DNA of 64,000 nucleotides from Candidatus Thorarchaeota archaeon (GTDB taxonomy: Archaea > Asgardarchaeota > Thorarchaeia > Thorarchaeales > Thorarchaeaceae), in the NCBI GenBank assembly GCA_020348985.1, contig CP070761.1, positions 2,563,445 through 2,627,444 of the forward strand, given 5' to 3'. The notes under the pieces were generated by a model. That model did not search any database. It saw only the letters and a list, made by a program, of their open reading frames with translations, and had not been told where the DNA came from. Made by a program: the position numbers and the translations under genes. This document shows positions 1,044 to 61,141 of the stretch, piece by piece. Positions within the stretch are counted from its first letter, which is position 1, and each line of letters begins with the position of its first letter.

Positions 1044-4000
1044 CTATACGTCAAAGAACTCCTTGGCATCAAATCGCTCTTCTCGTTCTCGACGCCTCTT
1101 TTCAGCCTCTTTCTCTCGACGCCGCGCTTCTTTCTCCCGTTCTCGGTCCCTTTTACGGTTATCACGTGGTTTCTTACTTGATCTCTTGAGGAGAGGTTCT
1201 TGTCGCCTCCTTTTTAGAGCGGCCCAGCCAATCATGGCTGCGATGAAGACACCACCGAGAATCGCCACTGTCAAGATAGGAGAAGGACGAATGAACATGA
1301 AATCTGATATCTCAACCGTGAGCGAATCATATCCAGCCTTCATTGCCAGAATTGTGATGCTGAAGGGACCCGTCCTACCAGTTGTCCACTCTTCGGATAA
1401 TAGGATAGTGTAGGTGCCCTGTGTACCTTCTTGGACCCCCACCTCAGTTTGATTGATCAATGAGCTCACTAATGCGCCGGTTATGGGGTCACCTACCTGG
1501 TCGATCAGCGTGAAGTTTATCCTGACACGGTCCCCTTCCCAGATAACCGTCTGACTCAGGTCAATGTCCGACAGTATTATCGAGGGAGCTCGCCTCCAGG
1601 CCAACGCATTCTCTAGGGTTCTGTTCTTCTCCAGCCCTGATGGATTCGTTGTGGTAAGCCCTATTTTCCCTGTTCCGACTGTCGACGCGATTATCACTGG
1701 ATTTGTGCCATCTGTAGCCACTACGCTGAAGTTGACCCAATGTGAATCGAAATGCCCTTGGTAGTCGACAACTGGCCCCAGAGAGTTCGGCTCTGAGACC
1801 AGAGGGTGGCCATCGTCTACTACAGTAATTGTCGAACCCGTTTCTGAGCTTGCGTAGGACACCGGCCATGGTAGCCAATCTAGGTTCCCGGTTGCTCCAA
1901 GGACAATAATTGTACCGCCGTTGGTCACAAACTCGGCGATGTCCGAGGAGATTGTGTTCATTGAGTTCTCAAGTGAGTCCAGTGATGAAGGCTCCATGAT
2001 CACAATCTTGTGAAGCGAGATTAGGTTGGTGAAGTCACTGAAGTTAGTTGATTCATAGTAGTCAAAATCTGCATCGAGAGCAGCAAGTCCCGTGGGCAAG
2101 TAGTTAGAATAACCAAGCGCAGCCACTTCGTGTACACCCCTTCCAGGTATGTGACCGTCGAGAACCAATGCGAGAGGATCAACTGCGGCTATATGCGGTG
2201 TCGCGTCAGGGTTGAACAGGTATGTTTCGGGATCACCATAAAGGATCTGTTGATTGGCGTAGTCAGGGGGGTCAAGATCAATGATTGGGTCGGTATAGTC
2301 AACTGATGTTGCTGCTAGCGCTCGATTGAGAGACAAGCCAGTACTATTACCATCTACAATGTTCTCTGTGAAAATGACTGAAAGCAGTCCACCAGCACGG
2401 AAATACACTGTTCTTGGTGCTGCGATCACGCCAGCCGCGCCATGCTCCATGAGTACTCGAGGAAGTCTTGATCCTCCCAAGAGACATGCAGTCACATGTA
2501 CGATTGTCGAGCCAATGTTACCAACACTCTGTTGAAGGTCATCTGTTGTGAGAAGCACGTGTCTTGGGTTCTCCAAGGGCCAAACGTATGGATTAACGAG
2601 TCCATTGTCATCACCATCTTGTACGGTCAGAGATACCTCATACCCATAGTCTTCGTCTTCATCCCGAAGTGAGAATATACCCACACCATCGGGTCTCATC
2701 GGAGGGTCTGTTGGAAAGACAGTGAGTGTGCCGTGAGTGCTGAGAGACCAGAAACCCACTTGTGAGCGTAATGCCTCAAAGACTTCGTCAGAGCCGATGT
2801 GATATTCCACTGCAAAACCTGCAGATTCAAGCGAATCGGTGAGGTCATCCACCTGATAGATTGTGTGTAAGTTATCGTAGTTGTCCTGCTGTCTGCCTCC
2901 GTGCGTGTAAGCATAAAGCGAGAGAAGGGAGGTGTCGGCAGAGTCCGATGTTTCGAATAGGAAGCGGTGTAGGACACCTCTTGAAATCATGACAGAGGCC
3001 GTCTCCGCGGACAGGGCAGGAATCCTTCCTGGGGAGAAGTGGGTTTGAAGTGACCTGTCGAAGCTCGCTTTTAGAAGGTCAATGGGTGAGACTATGAGCA
3101 GTGTCTGAATTGAAGTTGAATTGTAGGCACCTCTGTCTGTTAGAAAGCTCTCAAACTCTTGTGCAGAGTTTCTCATTGAGTAGATGTTTGGAATGCGTTC
3201 ATCGTACCACCCATTCTCAGTACGTGTTGTATACTGATTCTGAACATAGACTTCAATCTCAGGGCCAATGAGATAAGGAGCCCACGTTTCCTCAGCACGT
3301 GTAGTTATGGTGTTGTCATCACCTGCTAGTGAGAAAACGGGCCCACCATGTGCGGCCCCGGCAAACGCAGAAGCGCTGAAGAATTCATTTCCAGTTCCTA
3401 GCGGAAGTGATACTATGACGTCCGATTGACCGGACAGTGATTGTATCATGTTGGATAGCATGGGGTAGTTAGCAATGTTGACAAACAGATACTCTGAACT
3501 CAATGAAGTCTCCAAAGAGCTGGAGTGAAAATCAAGAGGATCAACCAAAATGCAGCTAGAAACACCTAGTCGGTCGAGTGCCCATTGCGTGGCAGATGGA
3601 ATTTCCGTCGGAGTTACATAAAGCAAGGGAGAATTGAGTTGAGACGCCAGAACTGCTCCATTGGCAGCTGACTCCAAATAGGCTGTGAGATCCTGTGGAA
3701 TCTGAGAAATAGACCAAGAAAGATCTGCGTTATTCACTTCTTCTGTTGCATCCATCCAGCCGACGACTATGTTCCATTGCCCTGGCATTGGATATGAAAT
3801 CTGAATGTCCTCCCTTCCGGGTTTGGACAGTATACTGCCCACAGGCGCCCAAGCAACAAGTCTGCCACTTGGATCAACCATTGCCATGTTTAGGTCAGTT
3901 GCAGCATTGTCCCAATTGAGAGTCACGTTCAGCCAAGATGCATCTGAAGGAACATCTACAGTGTGAGTGAAACCTGGATGGTATTTGATTTCAGAATCGA

Positions 4001-4907
4001 AACTCACCGGGTCGGCGACGAAGGATTCGGGATCAATCTCCAAGGTCCACTCCCCACTCACTGTATTTGGTACCCAGAAGTAGAGCGGGACCGGGCTTGG
4101 AGCGTAATTGCGCTCTGCGAAAACCTGCCTGTACAAAGAGTAGTCCATGACAACACCATTAGGGTCCGTAAGTGTATGTACAAACAGATCGGATCCGGTC
4201 CAGTTGAACTTCCCTTCAATCCATCCCACATTGGGCGAAGAAGTGAAATCAAACGTTACGGGGTTGGGCGTCGTAGCAACTATACTGGGGGAGACAACTG
4301 AGACCTGTGCTCCCGAGAATGTATACTCATAGGAACCTTCAGTCACAGTGGGCTCTTGGAACTGATCCTGTGACAGGGCTAACACTGCCGTATCTGTGGA
4401 GGCCCATTCGGCCACAGCAAGCCTAGCTGCAATTTGACTGGAGGAGGCCCCCTTCAGCTGAGGGTATACTTGTGTTCCAATGATGCCCTGCATCTTCATG
4501 ATGTAGTTGTGACTGAAATCACCGATCCCAATCGCCTGCGTAGTGCCTCCATCTTCATCCAAGTACTCGACCCAATCCTGAATTAGCCAGCCTTCACTAT
4601 CAGATTCAGAAACATGAATGACGGGAGAGATATAGTGTGTGCCCCCATACCAGAAGGTTGCAGTTGGGACAGCGGCCATGTACGCAAAATCATCAATGTA
4701 GGAGAGGGGATCAGATTGGACTAGTGTAATTCGACGAAGTGGTACGGGGTCTGGACTATTCCGGTAGGCGGCATCAGTACGGATTGTGCCATAGCTGTAA
4801 GGCGCGGGATTTGAAGTAATATGCACAAACCCCAGAGGGAGGAATGGTGATACGAAGATAATCGCTGCAAAAAGAACCGAGATTGTAAGTCTGCCAGGAA
4901 AATTCAT
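1044..4907 (-). CDS. Large secreted, C-terminally membrane-anchored surface protein: CWB2-like segments, PPC-like domains, gingipain/C25 (clan CD)-like domain
   Basis: Hydrophobic N-terminal signal; AVLASQLNSPLLYV; TLNWDNAATDLNMAMVDPSG (PPC-like); STHG...VTACL...GAAGVIA...ILYGDP; C-terminal TM followed by an R/K/E-rich tail. Confidence 0.6.
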   Translation of the reverse strand: MNFPGRLTISVLFAAIIFVSPFLPLGFVHITSNPAPYSYGTIRTDAAYRNSPDPVPLRRITLVQSDPLSYIDDFAYMAAVPTATFWYGGTHYISPVIHVSESDSEGWLIQDWVEYLDEDGGTTQAIGIGDFSHNYIMKMQGIIGTQVYPQLKGASSSQIAARLAVAEWASTDTAVLALSQDQFQEPTVTEGSYEYTFSGAQVSVVSPSIVATTPNPVTFDFTSSPNVGWIEGKFNWTGSDLFVHTLTDPNGVVMDYSLYRQVFAERNYAPSPVPLYFWVPNTVSGEWTLEIDPESFVADPVSFDSEIKYHPGFTHTVDVPSDASWLNVTLNWDNAATDLNMAMVDPSGRLVAWAPVGSILSKPGREDIQISYPMPGQWNIVVGWMDATEEVNNADLSWSISQIPQDLTAYLESAANGAVLASQLNSPLLYVTPTEIPSATQWALDRLGVSSCILVDPLDFHSSSLETSLSSEYLFVNIANYPMLSNMIQSLSGQSDVIVSLPLGTGNEFFSASAFAGAAHGGPVFSLAGDDNTITTRAEETWAPYLIGPEIEVYVQNQYTTRTENGWYDERIPNIYSMRNSAQEFESFLTDRGAYNSTSIQTLLIVSPIDLLKASFDRSLQTHFSPGRIPALSAETASVMISRGVLHRFLFETSDSADTSLLSLYAYTHGGRQQDNYDNLHTIYQVDDLTDSLESAGFAVEYHIGSDEVFEALRSQVGFWSLSTHGTLTVFPTDPPMRPDGVGIFSLRDEDEDYGYEVSLTVQDGDDNGLVNPYVWPLENPRHVLLTTDDLQQSVGNIGSTIVHVTACLLGGSRLPRVLMEHGAAGVIAAPRTVYFRAGGLLSVIFTENIVDGNSTGLSLNRALAATSVDYTDPIIDLDPPDYANQQILYGDPETYLFNPDATPHIAAVDPLALVLDGHIPGRGVHEVAALGYSNYLPTGLAALDADFDYYESTNFSDFTNLISLHKIVIMEPSSLDSLENSMNTISSDIAEFVTNGGTIIVLGATGNLDWLPWPVSYASSETGSTITVVDDGHPLVSEPNSLGPVVDYQGHFDSHWVNFSVVATDGTNPVIIASTVGTGKIGLTTTNPSGLEKNRTLENALAWRRAPSIILSDIDLSQTVIWEGDRVRINFTLIDQVGDPITGALVSSLINQTEVGVQEGTQGTYTILLSEEWTTGRTGPFSITILAMKAGYDSLTVEISDFMFIRPSPILTVAILGGVFIAAMIGWAALKRRRQEPLLKRSSKKPRDNRKRDREREKEARRREKEAEKRRREREERFDAKEFFDV

Positions 4908-5014: not shown

Positions 5015-5911
5015 CTATTCGACATCGTCGAGTTCTAGAAGATCTTCATCGAAGTCTTCGTCTTCCATTTCATCTTCCTCAGGAAGCGCATCACGAATAT
5101 CATCTATGGCAGGCCGGAGTCGTCTACGAGTACCCTTGGGGACATCCCACATCATTTGCTCAGCCCTGTCAATGACCTCTCTGGATATGTCAAGTATTTC
5201 AGCGTTTAGGTAGCATTGAGCCGCCTCTACAAAGCATTCAGCTGCTTTTCGAACATTCCCTTGGGTCTCTGCAATTTCCCCAAGCAGGGATAGAACATCT
5301 GCAATACCTGCGTTGTCGTCCAGATCCCTATAGATCTTCAACGCTTTCCTGAATGTCTTCTCAGCTTCCTCAGTGTTCTGCTGGTCCTGATATGCATTGC
5401 CTATGTCTACAAGTGTGACGGCTACACCTTGCTCATTTTCAACTGTCTTGTAGGCTCGTTGTGCCTTCTTGAAGAAGTCCATAGCTTTGTCAAAGTCACC
5501 TTGTCCTAGACTTGCCAACGCCACACCGTACATTGCATCAGCTGCGCCGTCCTTGTTTCCAAGCTTTTGGAACAAATCCATGGCTTTTTGGCAAGTTATG
5601 ACCGCTTCAGTCCATCTCTCTAGGTTGATCTGTGCGACACCAAGATTGTACGTTGTGTCACTGATTCCGGTCTCATCCTTCAACTTCTTGTAAAGGCTCA
5701 ATGATTTCTCGAAGCAATCAAGCGCCTCTTCAAACTCTGCGACGGACATGTATACATTTCCGGCTGCATTGTAAATCCTCGCTGCGACAGTCTCCTCTCC
5801 TGCTTCTTGAGCTGCAGCGGCTTCTTCGATGAGAAGTGCCGGGTCCAAATCGTCCATATCTTGTTCGTCGTCGCTCAAAGATTTCACCAAACCTTGTTCT
5901 CTCCGGTCCAA
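5015..5911 (-). CDS. Tetratricopeptide repeat protein with acidic termini
   Basis: Repeated ~40-aa units (YNAAGNVY..EEALDCFEKSL; YNLGVAQ..EAVITCQKAM; DIGNAY..EAEKTFRKAL). Confidence 0.85.
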   Translation of the reverse strand: MDRREQGLVKSLSDDEQDMDDLDPALLIEEAAAAQEAGEETVAARIYNAAGNVYMSVAEFEEALDCFEKSLSLYKKLKDETGISDTTYNLGVAQINLERWTEAVITCQKAMDLFQKLGNKDGAADAMYGVALASLGQGDFDKAMDFFKKAQRAYKTVENEQGVAVTLVDIGNAYQDQQNTEEAEKTFRKALKIYRDLDDNAGIADVLSLLGEIAETQGNVRKAAECFVEAAQCYLNAEILDISREVIDRAEQMMWDVPKGTRRRLRPAIDDIRDALPEEDEMEDEDFDEDLLELDDVE

Positions 5912-5943: not shown

Positions 5944-6645
5944 TTAGCGTCGCATGATAAGGACAGGATTCTCTAGAAAGTGCTTCACAGGATCTCTCAC
6001 GACGAAGCGTTCATCTCCAACTTCAACTTCAAGGAGCTTTCTCAATTCGAATCTTCGGAGATAGCCAACCGCTTGCTCGCGTGGGAGATTCAAATCAGAC
6101 ATTAGATTCTTCAGTCCCTTCTTCTGACCACTGAATTCTGCAAGCTTGCTGAAGACCGAACTCCACTGCATCATCGTCAGATAGAGCAAAGTCCTCAACA
6201 TGCTATCAACATTCTTTCCGGTCTCCGCCGAAACCGGTATGACAGGAAGTCCAGCTAGGAATCTCATGCTCTTTCTTAGATGATCGACAGGACGGGCTGT
6301 GTCAAGGTCCTGCTTATTTGCCGCAACAACACATGGAACTCCGGGTAGGAAGAACGCAATCTCGCGGAAGAAGAGCTTGGCGCGTGCATCAGATTCAGGG
6401 TCTACCGAATCTACGACGAAAATGATCCCGTCAGCCCCCTCACTGAGAATCTTGCGCATAGTCCTGAACCTCAAGAGTCCTGGTGTGCCGAAAAGGAACA
6501 CACTGAGCCCGTCTATGTTTGCTAGGCCATGATCCATGGCGATTGTTGTCCCTCCGCGTTCAACATTGATACAGGATCCATCAGTAATATGATAAATCAT
6601 CTTGCTCTTTCCAGATTCGAAGGGACCGGTTACGACTAGTTTCAT
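5944..6645 (-). CDS. MglA/conservon-type small GTPase with C-terminal wHTH-like extension
   Basis: G1 GPFESGKS, TTIAMDHG, G3 FGTPGL, G4 NKQD, G5 SAETG; ATG at 6645. Confidence 0.85.
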   Translation of the reverse strand: MKLVVTGPFESGKSKMIYHITDGSCINVERGGTTIAMDHGLANIDGLSVFLFGTPGLLRFRTMRKILSEGADGIIFVVDSVDPESDARAKLFFREIAFFLPGVPCVVAANKQDLDTARPVDHLRKSMRFLAGLPVIPVSAETGKNVDSMLRTLLYLTMMQWSSVFSKLAEFSGQKKGLKNLMSDLNLPREQAVGYLRRFELRKLLEVEVGDERFVVRDPVKHFLENPVLIMRR

Positions 6646-6808
6646 ACTGCGACACCGTGCAATGCTCAAGCATGCGATAGAGTGCAAGTATCATCGCCGT
6701 TGTTAAATCCTTTTGCCGTGTTTCATTGACAGCGTTTCTGCGCAAAACATCATTGATATCGATACTGGGCTGAAAAGCTGGTGGAGAGACCGGCCGCTTG
6801 CGGCAGCA

Positions 6809-6856
6809 ATCCTCAGTCGTCATTCCGATTCATGGTTTAGAACGACTTCATAGGAA
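6809..6856 (-). promoter_or_regulatory. Eukaryote-type SECIS element overlapping the selD stop codon
   Basis: Minus strand UUCC-UAU-GA-AGUCGUUCU-AAA-CC-AUGAAUC-GG-AAU-GACGACU-GA-GGAU: kink-turn core (UCC/GGA stem, 3-nt bulge, tandem G.A), 7-bp helix AGUCGUU/GACGACU, AAA, apical mini-stem. Confidence 0.8.
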
Positions 6857-7882
6857 ATCGGTCTCAATGATCTGTACGTCATCAGCCAAACGGGCTTGAG
6901 GCGTAGGACTTGCTTTTGTAGTTACTCCCACGGACCAGCACTGTATGCCTTTCTTCTTCAGTAGATCAGAGAGGGTGCCGGCCCTTCCGGACTCGATGAA
7001 TATGAGCATCCCTCCGGCAGTCTCTGCACTCTGGCCTATTGCCAGCTTGTGTCCAAAGTATTCCGCCAGCTGAGAAGTTCCACGTATAATAGGAAGAGTG
7101 TCGATCACCACATCCACACCACTTAGGACGGCGACATTGTTTGCATGCCCAATTATCCCAAAACCCGTGATGTCCGTGGCAGCATTGACTCCTATCTCAA
7201 CCATGGCTGCTGCGACTTCGCGATTGCTTTGTGTCATCACATTAACCGCAGACTTCTCTATTCGTCGGAGTTCGGATTCATCAAACTGAGCAAGCAGGGT
7301 ATCGCGCTTCTCATCTCTCAGATCTCTGTAGGATCGCATTGCAGGTTGGATTCCTAATGGTTTTGTCAAGAGCACCGAGTCCCCTGCTTTGGCGCCAGAT
7401 GAGTAAATCACATCTTTGGGATGGGCAATCCCGAGACATATTCCACCAAATACGGGCTCGGGATTCGTTATTGTCTGTCCCCCAGTGACTTTGGAATCTA
7501 GCTTCTTCATGAAGTCAGTCATACCCTGAAGGACTCCTGCAGCTATGTCCCTTGGCAAGTGGCGAGGATACGCCATGAATGCCTGCATTGACAGAATCTT
7601 TGTCGCACCCATTGCAAAAACATCGTTAGTTGCATTGCAAGCGACGATTTCACCCTGCACACGAGGGTCATCGTGGATAGGCGTGAAGATATCGACGTTT
7701 TCTATGACTGCGACATCATCGTTAATGACTTGGACAACGGCATCCTCTCCATACTCTCTTGAACAGACAACATCGGTCGGAATCAGACCTGATGCCTGGA
7801 GGAGTAGCGTCAAATCATCCTGCTTCACCTTGCAGCTTCAGCCGTGGCTAGTGACCATTGCAGTTAGTCGCGTTTCACGCAC
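6848..7882 (-). CDS. selD: Selenophosphate synthetase, selenocysteine-containing (UGA at 7838-7840 = Sec15)
   Basis: ORFs 7838..8083 and 6848..7828 are in one frame separated by a single TGA: VRETRLTAMVTSHG-U-SCKVKQDDL, matching SelD RLT...(U/C)xCK; also EDAVV, DIFTP, NATNDVFAMG, GGQT, LTKPLG, TDITGFG, ETAGGML; GTG start at 7882 inferred. Confidence 0.92.
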
Positions 7883-8031: not shown

Positions 8032-9477
8032 TTGAGGATAAGCAAGATTTCTGAAAATATTCACGAGATACCCATGGGAACACAGCAGTGTATGAGAGTC
8101 CCTGTCAAGGTGTTTGCCTCTGATGCTCTTGTGAGTAAGATGCGACAAGACGCAACATTCCAACAAGGTGCTAATGCTGCATGTCTTCCAGGAATCTACT
8201 CACATGGCATAATCCTGCCAGATGGCCATCAGGGCTACGGGTTTCCAATAGGCGGAGTTGCGGCAATCGACTACGAGAACGGAGTGATTTCGCCAGGAGG
8301 TGTCGGCTACGACATCAACTGTGGTGTCCGTGTTCTGCGGACTGATTTTGATGAGAAAGATGTTAGACCGCAGCTGAAGGAGCTTGTCAATCGTCTTTTC
8401 AACGACATCCCGACTGGAGTTGGAAGAGGCGGAAGAATCGATGTAAGAGGAAAAGGGGGAGTTGACGAAATCCTACTTAGAGGAGCTGAATGGGCTGTCG
8501 AAAACGGATTCGGGTGGAAGGAAGACCTTGAACATCAGGAAGCCGGAGGGCGAATAGAATATGCAGATCCCTCAAAGGTTTCATCTCACGCGAAGGAGAG
8601 GGGAATGCGGCAGGTGGGCACATTGGGCTCGGGAAATCACTTCCTTGAGATTCAGGTTGTCGACCAGATCTATAATGAAGAAGCGGCCTCAGCAATGGGA
8701 ATAACCCATACAGGTCAAGTGACTGTCATGATTCATAGTGGATCGCGAGGACTTGGTCATCAGGTATGCAGTGACTACATCAAAATCATGACGCAAGCAA
8801 TGCGTAAGTATAGCTTGGATCTTCCGGACAGGGAGCTCTGTAGTGCACCCACGACATCTGATGAAGGACAGGCATATCTAGGTGCGATGAGTGCCGCGGC
8901 GAATTATGCGTTTGCCAATAGACAATCGATGCTGCACTGGACTCGCGAGACGTTTTCCAGTATCTTTGGACAAGCACCAGAGGACATTGGGATGCGTCTA
9001 ATCTATGACGTCGCACACAACATGGGAAAGGTTGAGGAACACGAAATAGAAGGTAAGAGAAGAAAAGTCGTAGTCCATCGAAAAGGAGCAACGCGAGCTT
9101 TTCCGCCAGGCCATGAAGAGGTCCCGTCCAAGTACAAGAATATCGGGCAACCGGTCCTGATACCAGGAACAATGGGGACGGCATCGTATATCCTCATTGG
9201 GGACAAGCGCGGGATGGACCTGACATTTGGATCAACGGCACATGGTGCTGGCAGATTCATGAGCCGCAGTAGAGCCAAGAAGCAATTCTTTGGGAAAGAA
9301 GTGCAGAGCTCGTTAGCAGAAACCGGGATCATTGTCAAAGCAACAAAAGGCATAGTCATAGCCGAAGAAGCACCTGGTGCTTACAAGGACGTAGACGAAG
9401 TTGTAAGGGTTTCAGATGCAGTCGGAATAGCTACCAAGGCAGTAAGACTACGACCGATTGGTGTCATCAAGGGCTGA
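8032..9477 (+). CDS. rtcB: RNA-splicing ligase RtcB
   Basis: PDGHQGYGFPIGG, GYDINCG, GTLGSGNHF, HSGSRG, HRKGAT, PGTMG, HGAGR, EEAPGAYK. Confidence 0.97.
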   Translation: MRISKISENIHEIPMGTQQCMRVPVKVFASDALVSKMRQDATFQQGANAACLPGIYSHGIILPDGHQGYGFPIGGVAAIDYENGVISPGGVGYDINCGVRVLRTDFDEKDVRPQLKELVNRLFNDIPTGVGRGGRIDVRGKGGVDEILLRGAEWAVENGFGWKEDLEHQEAGGRIEYADPSKVSSHAKERGMRQVGTLGSGNHFLEIQVVDQIYNEEAASAMGITHTGQVTVMIHSGSRGLGHQVCSDYIKIMTQAMRKYSLDLPDRELCSAPTTSDEGQAYLGAMSAAANYAFANRQSMLHWTRETFSSIFGQAPEDIGMRLIYDVAHNMGKVEEHEIEGKRRKVVVHRKGATRAFPPGHEEVPSKYKNIGQPVLIPGTMGTASYILIGDKRGMDLTFGSTAHGAGRFMSRSRAKKQFFGKEVQSSLAETGIIVKATKGIVIAEEAPGAYKDVDEVVRVSDAVGIATKAVRLRPIGVIKG

Positions 9478-61053: not shown

Positions 61054-61141
61054 TGGTGCGGAGGGCGAGATTCGAACTCGCGAACACCTACGTGATAGGG
61101 ATCTGAACCCTACGCCTTTGACCTGGCTTGGCAACCTCCGC
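61054..61141 (-). tRNA. tRNA-Leu(CAG), CCA encoded, no intron
   Basis: GCGGAGGTTGCCAAGCCAGGTCAAAGGCGTAGGG-TTCAGAT-CCCTATCACGTAGGTGTTCGCGAGTTCGAATCTCGCCCTCCGCACCA; long variable arm, discriminator A. Confidence 0.95.

Follow-up and report, generated by a model that had tools for sequence, protein, structure and literature searches.

The selD mRNA of this Candidatus Thorarchaeota archaeon ends in a conserved three-way RNA junction that is very probably its SECIS. The element belongs to a published class, the Asgard type II SECIS. Through it the UGA at codon 15 would be recoded as Sec, and the UGA that forms part of its core would be read as the stop codon. The evidence comes from comparison of selD 3′ ends within the Thorarchaeota and across other Asgard archaea. 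Coordinates given below are those of the window, the whole stretch of DNA that was analyzed (64,000 nucleotides of contig CP070761.1, assembly GCA_020348985.1), unless they are marked as genome or locus positions. The selD gene and its RNA element are on the minus strand, (-).

The selD gene and its Sec codon

The coding sequence of selD (selenide, water dikinase) spans 6848-7882 (-), as assigned from the sequence and its translation, NCBIfam and the orthologue alignment. It starts with GTG at 7882-7880 and stops with UGA at 6850-6848, and the frame is open when TGA is read as Sec. The Sec UGA is codon 15 (7840-7838), in the context HG-U-SCK. The predicted protein begins M-RETRLTAMVTSHG-U-SCK and ends ...IETDFL. 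It matches NCBIfam NF010705 at 307 bits, above the cut-off of 291, and its U/C column is invariant in the orthologue alignment. The proposal of the initial annotation that UGA is used as Sec at codon 15 of this same mRNA is thus borne out by the reading frame, the identity of the protein and the alignment. The orthologue comparison gave no conserved structure directly 3′ of the Sec codon, and for that reason a bacterial-type SECIS at this position was dropped.

The genome contains a SepSecS gene. A tRNA-Sec gene was not found in the assembly with RF01852, ARAGORN or BLAST using the genes of congeners. Such a gene is present in 11 of the 15 family genomes sampled, both congeners included, and its absence here is probably a gap in an assembly that is 86% complete. 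Matches to FlpD and to the NiFe large subunit, from a hydrogenase/Hdr cluster just outside the window, have no in-frame TGA.

The surroundings of selD were identified from translation only. Just downstream lies a small Ras/Arf-like GTPase (5944-6654, (-)), and on the same strand are a TPR-repeat protein (5015-5911, (-)) and a protein of 1287 aa that has a membrane anchor at its C-terminus and a tail rich in lysine and arginine (1044-4907, (-)). An RtcB-type RNA ligase is encoded at 8032-9477 (+). The sole RNA gene that Rfam and ARAGORN report in the window is a tRNA-Leu (CAG) at 61054-61141 (-).

A SECIS-like hairpin at the stop codon

Read on the minus strand, positions 6856 to 6809 are UUC CUA UGA AGUCGUU CUAAACCAUGAAUCGGAAU GACGACU GA GGA U. 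The motif letters, and the k-turn and SECIS parts originally described for 6809-6856, were all confirmed on this strand. The codons for Phe-Leu supply UCC (6853-6855), the 5′ strand of the C-stem of a predicted k-turn, which pairs with GGA at 6810-6812 (98% paired). The adjoining UAUGA (6848-6852) comprises the bulge UAU (6852-6850) and the GA (6849-6848) that would form the G.A and A.G pairs; it contains the stop codon, UGA 6850-6848. Helix II has 7 bp, one of them a U.G pair. Its 5′ arm AGUCGUU (6841-6847) pairs with the 3′ arm GACGACU (6815-6821), which was assigned with RNAalifold and pair counts, and 7/7 pairs show compensatory change. The apical part, CUAAACCAUGAAUCGGAAU (6822-6840), is made up of an unpaired AAA (6838-6836), a ministem of CC (6835-6834) with GG (6826-6825) and a loop of 7 nt, and AAAC(C)...GG is seen in nearly all Thorarchaeota orthologues. 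The 3′ core GA (6814-6813) and the 3′ strand of the C-stem, GGA (6812-6810), complete the hairpin at 6810-6814 and were assigned from the orthologue comparison.

A single-sequence fold of 66 nt gave z = -1.14, which is without significance, and the MFE fold picks a different helix register, GUCGUUCU/GGAAUGAC. When the genome was scanned for a strict k-turn/AAR motif, its two strands together held 8 sites; a single strand of a simulated genome held 6, so that the count is at chance level. Only the selD site is convincing among those 8, and the motif alone cannot find a SECIS here. The covariance-model check suggested at the outset came back empty: Rfam SECIS_1 (RF00031) had no match at E ≤ 10 in the region or in the whole genome, and no Rfam SECIS family matched anywhere in the window. 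Because the single-sequence fold and the motif count are at chance level, the case rests on comparison.

An 80-aa ORF at 6581-6823 (-) begins with an ATG that lies in the SECIS 3′ arm (AAUGACGACU) and overlaps both the junction and the start of the next gene. It is probably not a gene.

Conservation and covariation among Thorarchaeota

Among 40 relatives searched with the protein, 17 genomes, all from the same family, have a selD that contains an in-frame TGA (59-67% amino acid identity). Eight loci from Candidatus Thorarchaeota MAGs, or grouping with them, were added; with one duplicate removed, the sample held 24 distinct Thorarchaeota sequences. The stop codon is UGA at the core position in 24/24 of their selD 3′ ends; the core UGA of the SECIS is the stop codon of selD. 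All 17 family genomes have a selD that ends ...E-T-x-F-(P/L/R)-UGA, and there the stop is followed by a helix whose arms change together, AAAC(C), a CC/GG stem, the return arm and GA-GGA, in that order. The eight MAG loci have this arrangement too. The core reads AUGA in 14 of the 24 distinct sequences, GUGA in 9 and CUGA in 1 (genome G009, locus L010). An AA in place of the 3′ core GA, giving AUGA_AA with an A.A pair replacing A.G, occurs in G012 (L011) and in two non-Thorarchaeota Asgard selD genes (L074, L080). The bulge of the k-turn is 3 nt long in every orthologue. Genome G010 carries a double change in the C-stem, UUC/GAA, and its last codons are altered too.

When run on the 17 orthologues, RNAalifold returned the pairing of the initial annotation and not the MFE register, and it added two helices. 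Over the resulting junction structure, 93.6% of cells are paired and 15/22 pairs show a compensatory change. None of 500 shuffles reached any of five measures, and slid controls were 31-46% paired; because the orthologues are mutually related, the shuffle counts cannot be read as probabilities, and the controls with slid partners offer a fairer test. The MFE register has 63.5% of cells paired, which was equalled by 134 of 500 shuffles. Lack of conservation or covariation of the stem had been named in advance as what would speak against the element, and both are clearly present: the stop is UGA throughout and the stem covaries. To judge from these alignments, the hairpin is a real conserved element.

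A second in-frame UGA had also been pointed out inside the apical loop. It is there, at 6832-6830 after five sense codons, and it is confined to this genome; in the orthologues the next in-frame stop after the selD UGA is 0 to 76 codons away. Read-through to ...ETDFL-U-SRSKP was dropped, as the downstream frame is not conserved.

A larger three-way junction

The initial annotation had one arm right with 6809-6856, and missed a closing helix (P1) that begins in the coding sequence as well as a second hairpin. The conserved unit extends from 6865 to 6786. RNAalifold, pair counts and a covariance model (R1) delimit this three-way junction, the SECIS in the wide sense, as 80 nt at 6786-6865 (-). 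The 5′ strand of P1 is GAGACCG (6859-6865), which encodes Glu-Thr and the first base of Asp, and it pairs with CGGUCUC (6786-6792), identified by RNAalifold and pair counts. All 7 pairs of P1 are 100% paired and 3 are compensatory (G-C to A-U, A-U to G-C and C-G to U-A). Variants include GAA/UUC in place of GAG/CUC, and GCC/GGC or ACU/AGU in place of ACC/GGU. Hairpin 2 adjoins P1 and consists of GCUGC, the loop CGCAA and GCGGC (6793-6807 (-); 96% paired, with compensatory change in 4/5 pairs). It was found in 24/24 distinct Thorarchaeota sequences, and its loop or tip has GCAA or GCGA in all of them. The 5′ strand of P1, the C-stem and the k-turn all fall within the last 18 nt of the selD coding sequence. 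Sequence conservation ends directly after P1, with no further conserved structure beyond the junction.

The model R1 was built from 17 family sequences. On this genome it had a single match, at selD, with 88 bits. It scored 80-96 bits on 8 Thorarchaeota MAG loci on which it had not been trained and 21-33 bits on some non-Thorarchaeota Asgard selD ends. There was no match at ten Cys-type Bathyarchaeia selD loci (HGCSCK, stop TAA or TAG).

We infer a role for hairpin 2 from its conservation only. Two possible likenesses were considered and rejected. Hairpin 2 as a mimic of the variable arm of tRNA-Sec (AUCGY-GCAA-GCGAU) was dropped because the two loops show no joint variation from genome to genome: in G010 the arm has UCAC and hairpin 2 has CGCAA, and in G003 they have GAAA and AGCAA, respectively. 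The likeness between the arm (L048, L051, L046, L158-L162) and 6793-6807 is generic and comes down to a GC stem with a GNRA-type loop. P1 with hairpin 2 was also dropped as a homologue of the euryarchaeal SECIS, since there is no GAA_A at the junction and the published mapping onto helix II, AAA and ministem fits better. The text of the literature consulted, figures and SECIS tables aside, does not mention a further hairpin, a junction or a loop of the GNRA type for a SECIS. The larger junction may be a new detail; it may equally be a modest refinement, or may be drawn already.

The junction in other Asgard archaea

Non-Thorarchaeota selD genes were examined in MAGs labelled Promethearchaeota, Hermod-, Hod- and Odinarchaeota. 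The stop codon of these genes is mostly UAA, and the junction begins 1-2 nt later, wholly in the 3′UTR. P1 is GAUG/CAUC, and AUGA comes ~10 nt after the stop, followed by helix II, AAAC and the ministem. Hairpin 2 takes the form CCAC(N)-loop-(N)GUGG, with a loop of 5-7 nt that is mostly of the UGCRA type. RNAalifold gives this junction independently. The junction accompanies Sec-type selD in the 24 distinct Thorarchaeota sequences and at about 19 other Asgard loci, and it is linked exclusively with Sec-type genes. By this comparison, the junction is an old feature of the Asgard selD SECIS into which the Thorarchaeota reading frame runs, with the core UGA as its stop.

R1 also matches upstream of selD in two non-Thorarchaeota loci (L073:117-204, L078:264-351), and G032 has two adjacent selD copies (L021, C5:26601-27614). 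This suggests that some Asgard lineages carry selD in tandem and that every copy has a SECIS. Five genomes (G008, G010, G013, G014, G023) encode a SelD-like domain (36-39% identity) in frames of 750-780 aa without an in-frame stop (L023-L025), apparently a fusion protein. In G008 and G013 tRNA-Sec is present, yet a Thorarchaeota-type selD was not found with this query.

A second selenoprotein gene with the same layout

Another selenoprotein gene lies ~228 kb before the window (genome 2334996-2335754, (-); L132:300-1055). Its product has a CxxU motif near the N-terminus and no NCBIfam match. The gene ends ...KKLR-UGA, and this stop UGA is part of an AUGA core. RNAfold predicted three elements: a long closing helix formed with coding sequence, a SECIS hairpin and another, small hairpin. 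Of the 40 family genomes sampled, 31 have a homologue with a single in-frame TGA. All of the orthologue 3′ ends that were extracted (25/25) stop at R-UGA, and beyond it lie a helix with covariation, the sequence GUAAAGC and another hairpin. In most of these ends AAGAAG, which encodes Lys-Lys, is opposite a downstream CUUCUU, and CGGAAC/GUUCUG occurs as a double-changed variant; these pairings were read by eye. These 3′ ends indicate that the stop-in-core layout is not specific to selD.

Proposed mechanism and alternative explanations

In the mechanism that we propose, the folded junction would recruit the archaeal Sec elongation factor, either directly or via a k-turn-binding protein, and the recruited factor, acting over about 1 kb, would recode the upstream UGA at codon 15. 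A ribosome that arrives at the terminal UGA would already have melted the closing helix and the k-turn. The terminal UGA would be read as stop because the SECIS has by then been unfolded in cis, following the minimal-distance rule proposed for Loki and eukaryotic SECIS. A UAA or UAG stop would break the first G.A pair. The identity of the stop and the RNA core thus constrain each other, which would explain why UGA and the C-terminus ...E-T-x-F-P are constant across the family.

The same geometry led the initial annotation to suggest a feedback device, in which terminating ribosomes unfold the SECIS and thereby limit or autoregulate Sec insertion into SelD specifically. With the 5′ strand of P1, the C-stem and the k-turn in the end of the coding sequence, finishing ribosomes must melt the element, and the arrangement is strictly conserved. 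However, the design is not confined to selD, for in this genome and family a selenoprotein unrelated to SelD has it in 25/25 orthologues. The other Asgard junctions, starting 1-2 nt past the stop, are within the footprint of a terminating ribosome and should melt likewise, and the conservation already follows from the mutual constraint of stop codon and k-turn, with no need for regulation. We therefore consider feedback of this kind improbable. It is very unlikely that the junction is not the SECIS but a structure that serves the 3′ end, stability or termination, or a translational regulator that binds L7Ae, with recoding driven from elsewhere. Such roles would suit its place where the transcript region ends, ahead of U-rich sequence, and k-turns bind L7Ae in many archaeal RNAs; hairpin 2, moreover, is absent from the published SECIS models as described in their text. 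Against this, the junction carries the SECIS hallmarks R-UGA, GA, AAA and ministem and is the sole conserved structure found. It occurs with Sec-type selD (24 Thorarchaeota, about 19 other Asgard) and is absent at Cys-type selD, and a similar element ends the second selenoprotein gene. A chance hairpin beside a UGA stop would agree with the z of -1.14 and with a motif count at the random level, but covariation and conservation over 24 distinct sequences and several Asgard classes refute it, and we give it almost no credence.

Given that the junction is taken as the SECIS, a more far-reaching version is possible, and we put it forward only tentatively. The working SECIS of Thorarchaeota and Asgard selD may be the composite junction as a whole, where published models have a single k-turn hairpin, and the GC-rich hairpin 2 with its conserved GC-containing loop may be an additional determinant of recognition or folding. 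With its closing helix in the last codons, the junction might then always couple termination to SECIS folding in Thorarchaeota selenoprotein mRNAs.

Asgard SECIS elements are a proposed link from archaeal to eukaryotic Sec decoding, and it has been suggested that selD carried this transition. The locus offers no new principle, given the earlier publication of a stop codon within a SECIS core. What the comparison adds is that Thorarchaeota have the overlap as a constant feature across genera and in two unrelated selenoprotein families, that the RNA structure locks the stop codon together with the C-terminal residues, and that the conserved unit exceeds the published hairpin in size. If function depends on hairpin 2 and the closing helix, search models limited to the hairpin mis-define these elements, and binding studies of an SBP2 substitute should take the whole junction. 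Should the composite SECIS be true, the modelling of Asgard SECIS and the search for them would change, and the junction would provide a concrete RNA bait for the SECIS-binding factor.

Comparison with known SECIS elements

The selD element is a predicted Asgard eukaryote-like compact type II (AUGA_AAA_GA) SECIS. This class assignment was made in the initial annotation and holds up, since the core, helix, AAA and ministem are seen and the element is conserved and covarying. Both the stop-in-core layout and the minimal-distance argument are already published (PMC4989117, PMC11227280). The text on Loki VhuU.1 describes an AUGA that also works as the stop codon and a UGA so near the SECIS as not recodable (PMC4989117). 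For Thorarchaeia selD, the text of PMC11227280 describes a type II SECIS with an AUGA/GUGA_GA core, unpaired [U/A][A/G]AA and the lower stem G[A/U]G_C[U/A]C. The SECIS search reported there began 30 nt upstream of the stop because of stop overlaps, and SECISearch3 returned nothing. In that text the stop-codon overlap is stated for Lokiarchaeia and not for Thorarchaeota selD, the region between lower stem and core is treated as an internal loop, and a second hairpin or junction is not mentioned (PMC11227280). In Thorarchaeota selD, GUGA arises only from CCG-UGA, so that the GUGA_GA data given in the text implicitly contain the overlap (PMC11227280). SBP2 is reported as undetected in Asgard archaea in the texts consulted, including that of PMC4989117.

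Under the type II rules of Huang, the core (5′-GA...[G/A]A-3′, usually after AU or GU) corresponds to UAUGA at 6852-6848 with GA at 6814-6813. The upper stem, for which 7-15 bp with at most 2 mismatches are specified, is the 7-bp AGUCGUU/GACGACU, and the rules place the element at, or just downstream of, the 3′ end of a gene that has a Sec UGA in frame, which is where it lies in selD. The CC/GG ministem and the bulge of CUAAA and AAU fit the ranges of 2-8 bp and 4-12 nt. The apical loop is 7 nt here versus a limit of 2-6 nt, and 3-6 nt in the orthologues. The published type II search pattern, as its text describes it, tolerates one mismatch or indel (PMC11227280).

The Thorarchaeia type II eSECIS of Huang 2024 shares gene, clade and class with our element, and its GAG/CUC is here a part of P1. 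The lokiSECIS of Loki VhuU.1 is likewise an Asgard element with an AUGA...GA k-turn core, overlap with the coding sequence and AUGA as the stop. It differs in being of type I and in belonging to a hydrogenase subunit, as a single reported gene, whereas the present element is of type II and on selD, its overlap is fixed in every Thorarchaeota orthologue examined, and its closing helix extends 15 nt into the coding sequence. The Loki-like SPS (selD) SECIS and those of other non-Thorarchaeota Asgard have a homologous junction, but all of it lies in the 3′UTR.

Eukaryotic type II SECIS (RF00031, e.g., SEPHS2) resemble the selD element in the AUGA_GA quartet, the unpaired A's (AAR motif), the ministem and a distant upstream UGA. 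Their helix II is about 12-15 bp long versus 7 bp here, they are bound by SBP2, and they lie entirely in the 3′UTR, whereas the selD element shares 18 nt with the end of the coding sequence. The selD element further differs in its predicted classical k-turn with a 3-nt bulge and a covarying 3-bp C-stem (UCC-UAU-GA...GA-GGA) and in its three-way junction. The euryarchaeal SECIS of Methanococcus and Methanopyrus is alike in its position near the stop, and its stem, unpaired A's and GC ministem resemble helix II, AAA and CC-GG; the text of PMC11227280 maps it onto these parts of the Asgard element as a proposed relationship. What defines that SECIS is an internal loop, GAA_A, immediately below an upper stem with 3-6 S-S pairs in succession, whereas in selD CUAAA precedes two C-G pairs, with no strict GAA_A, and a k-turn and hairpin 2 are present.
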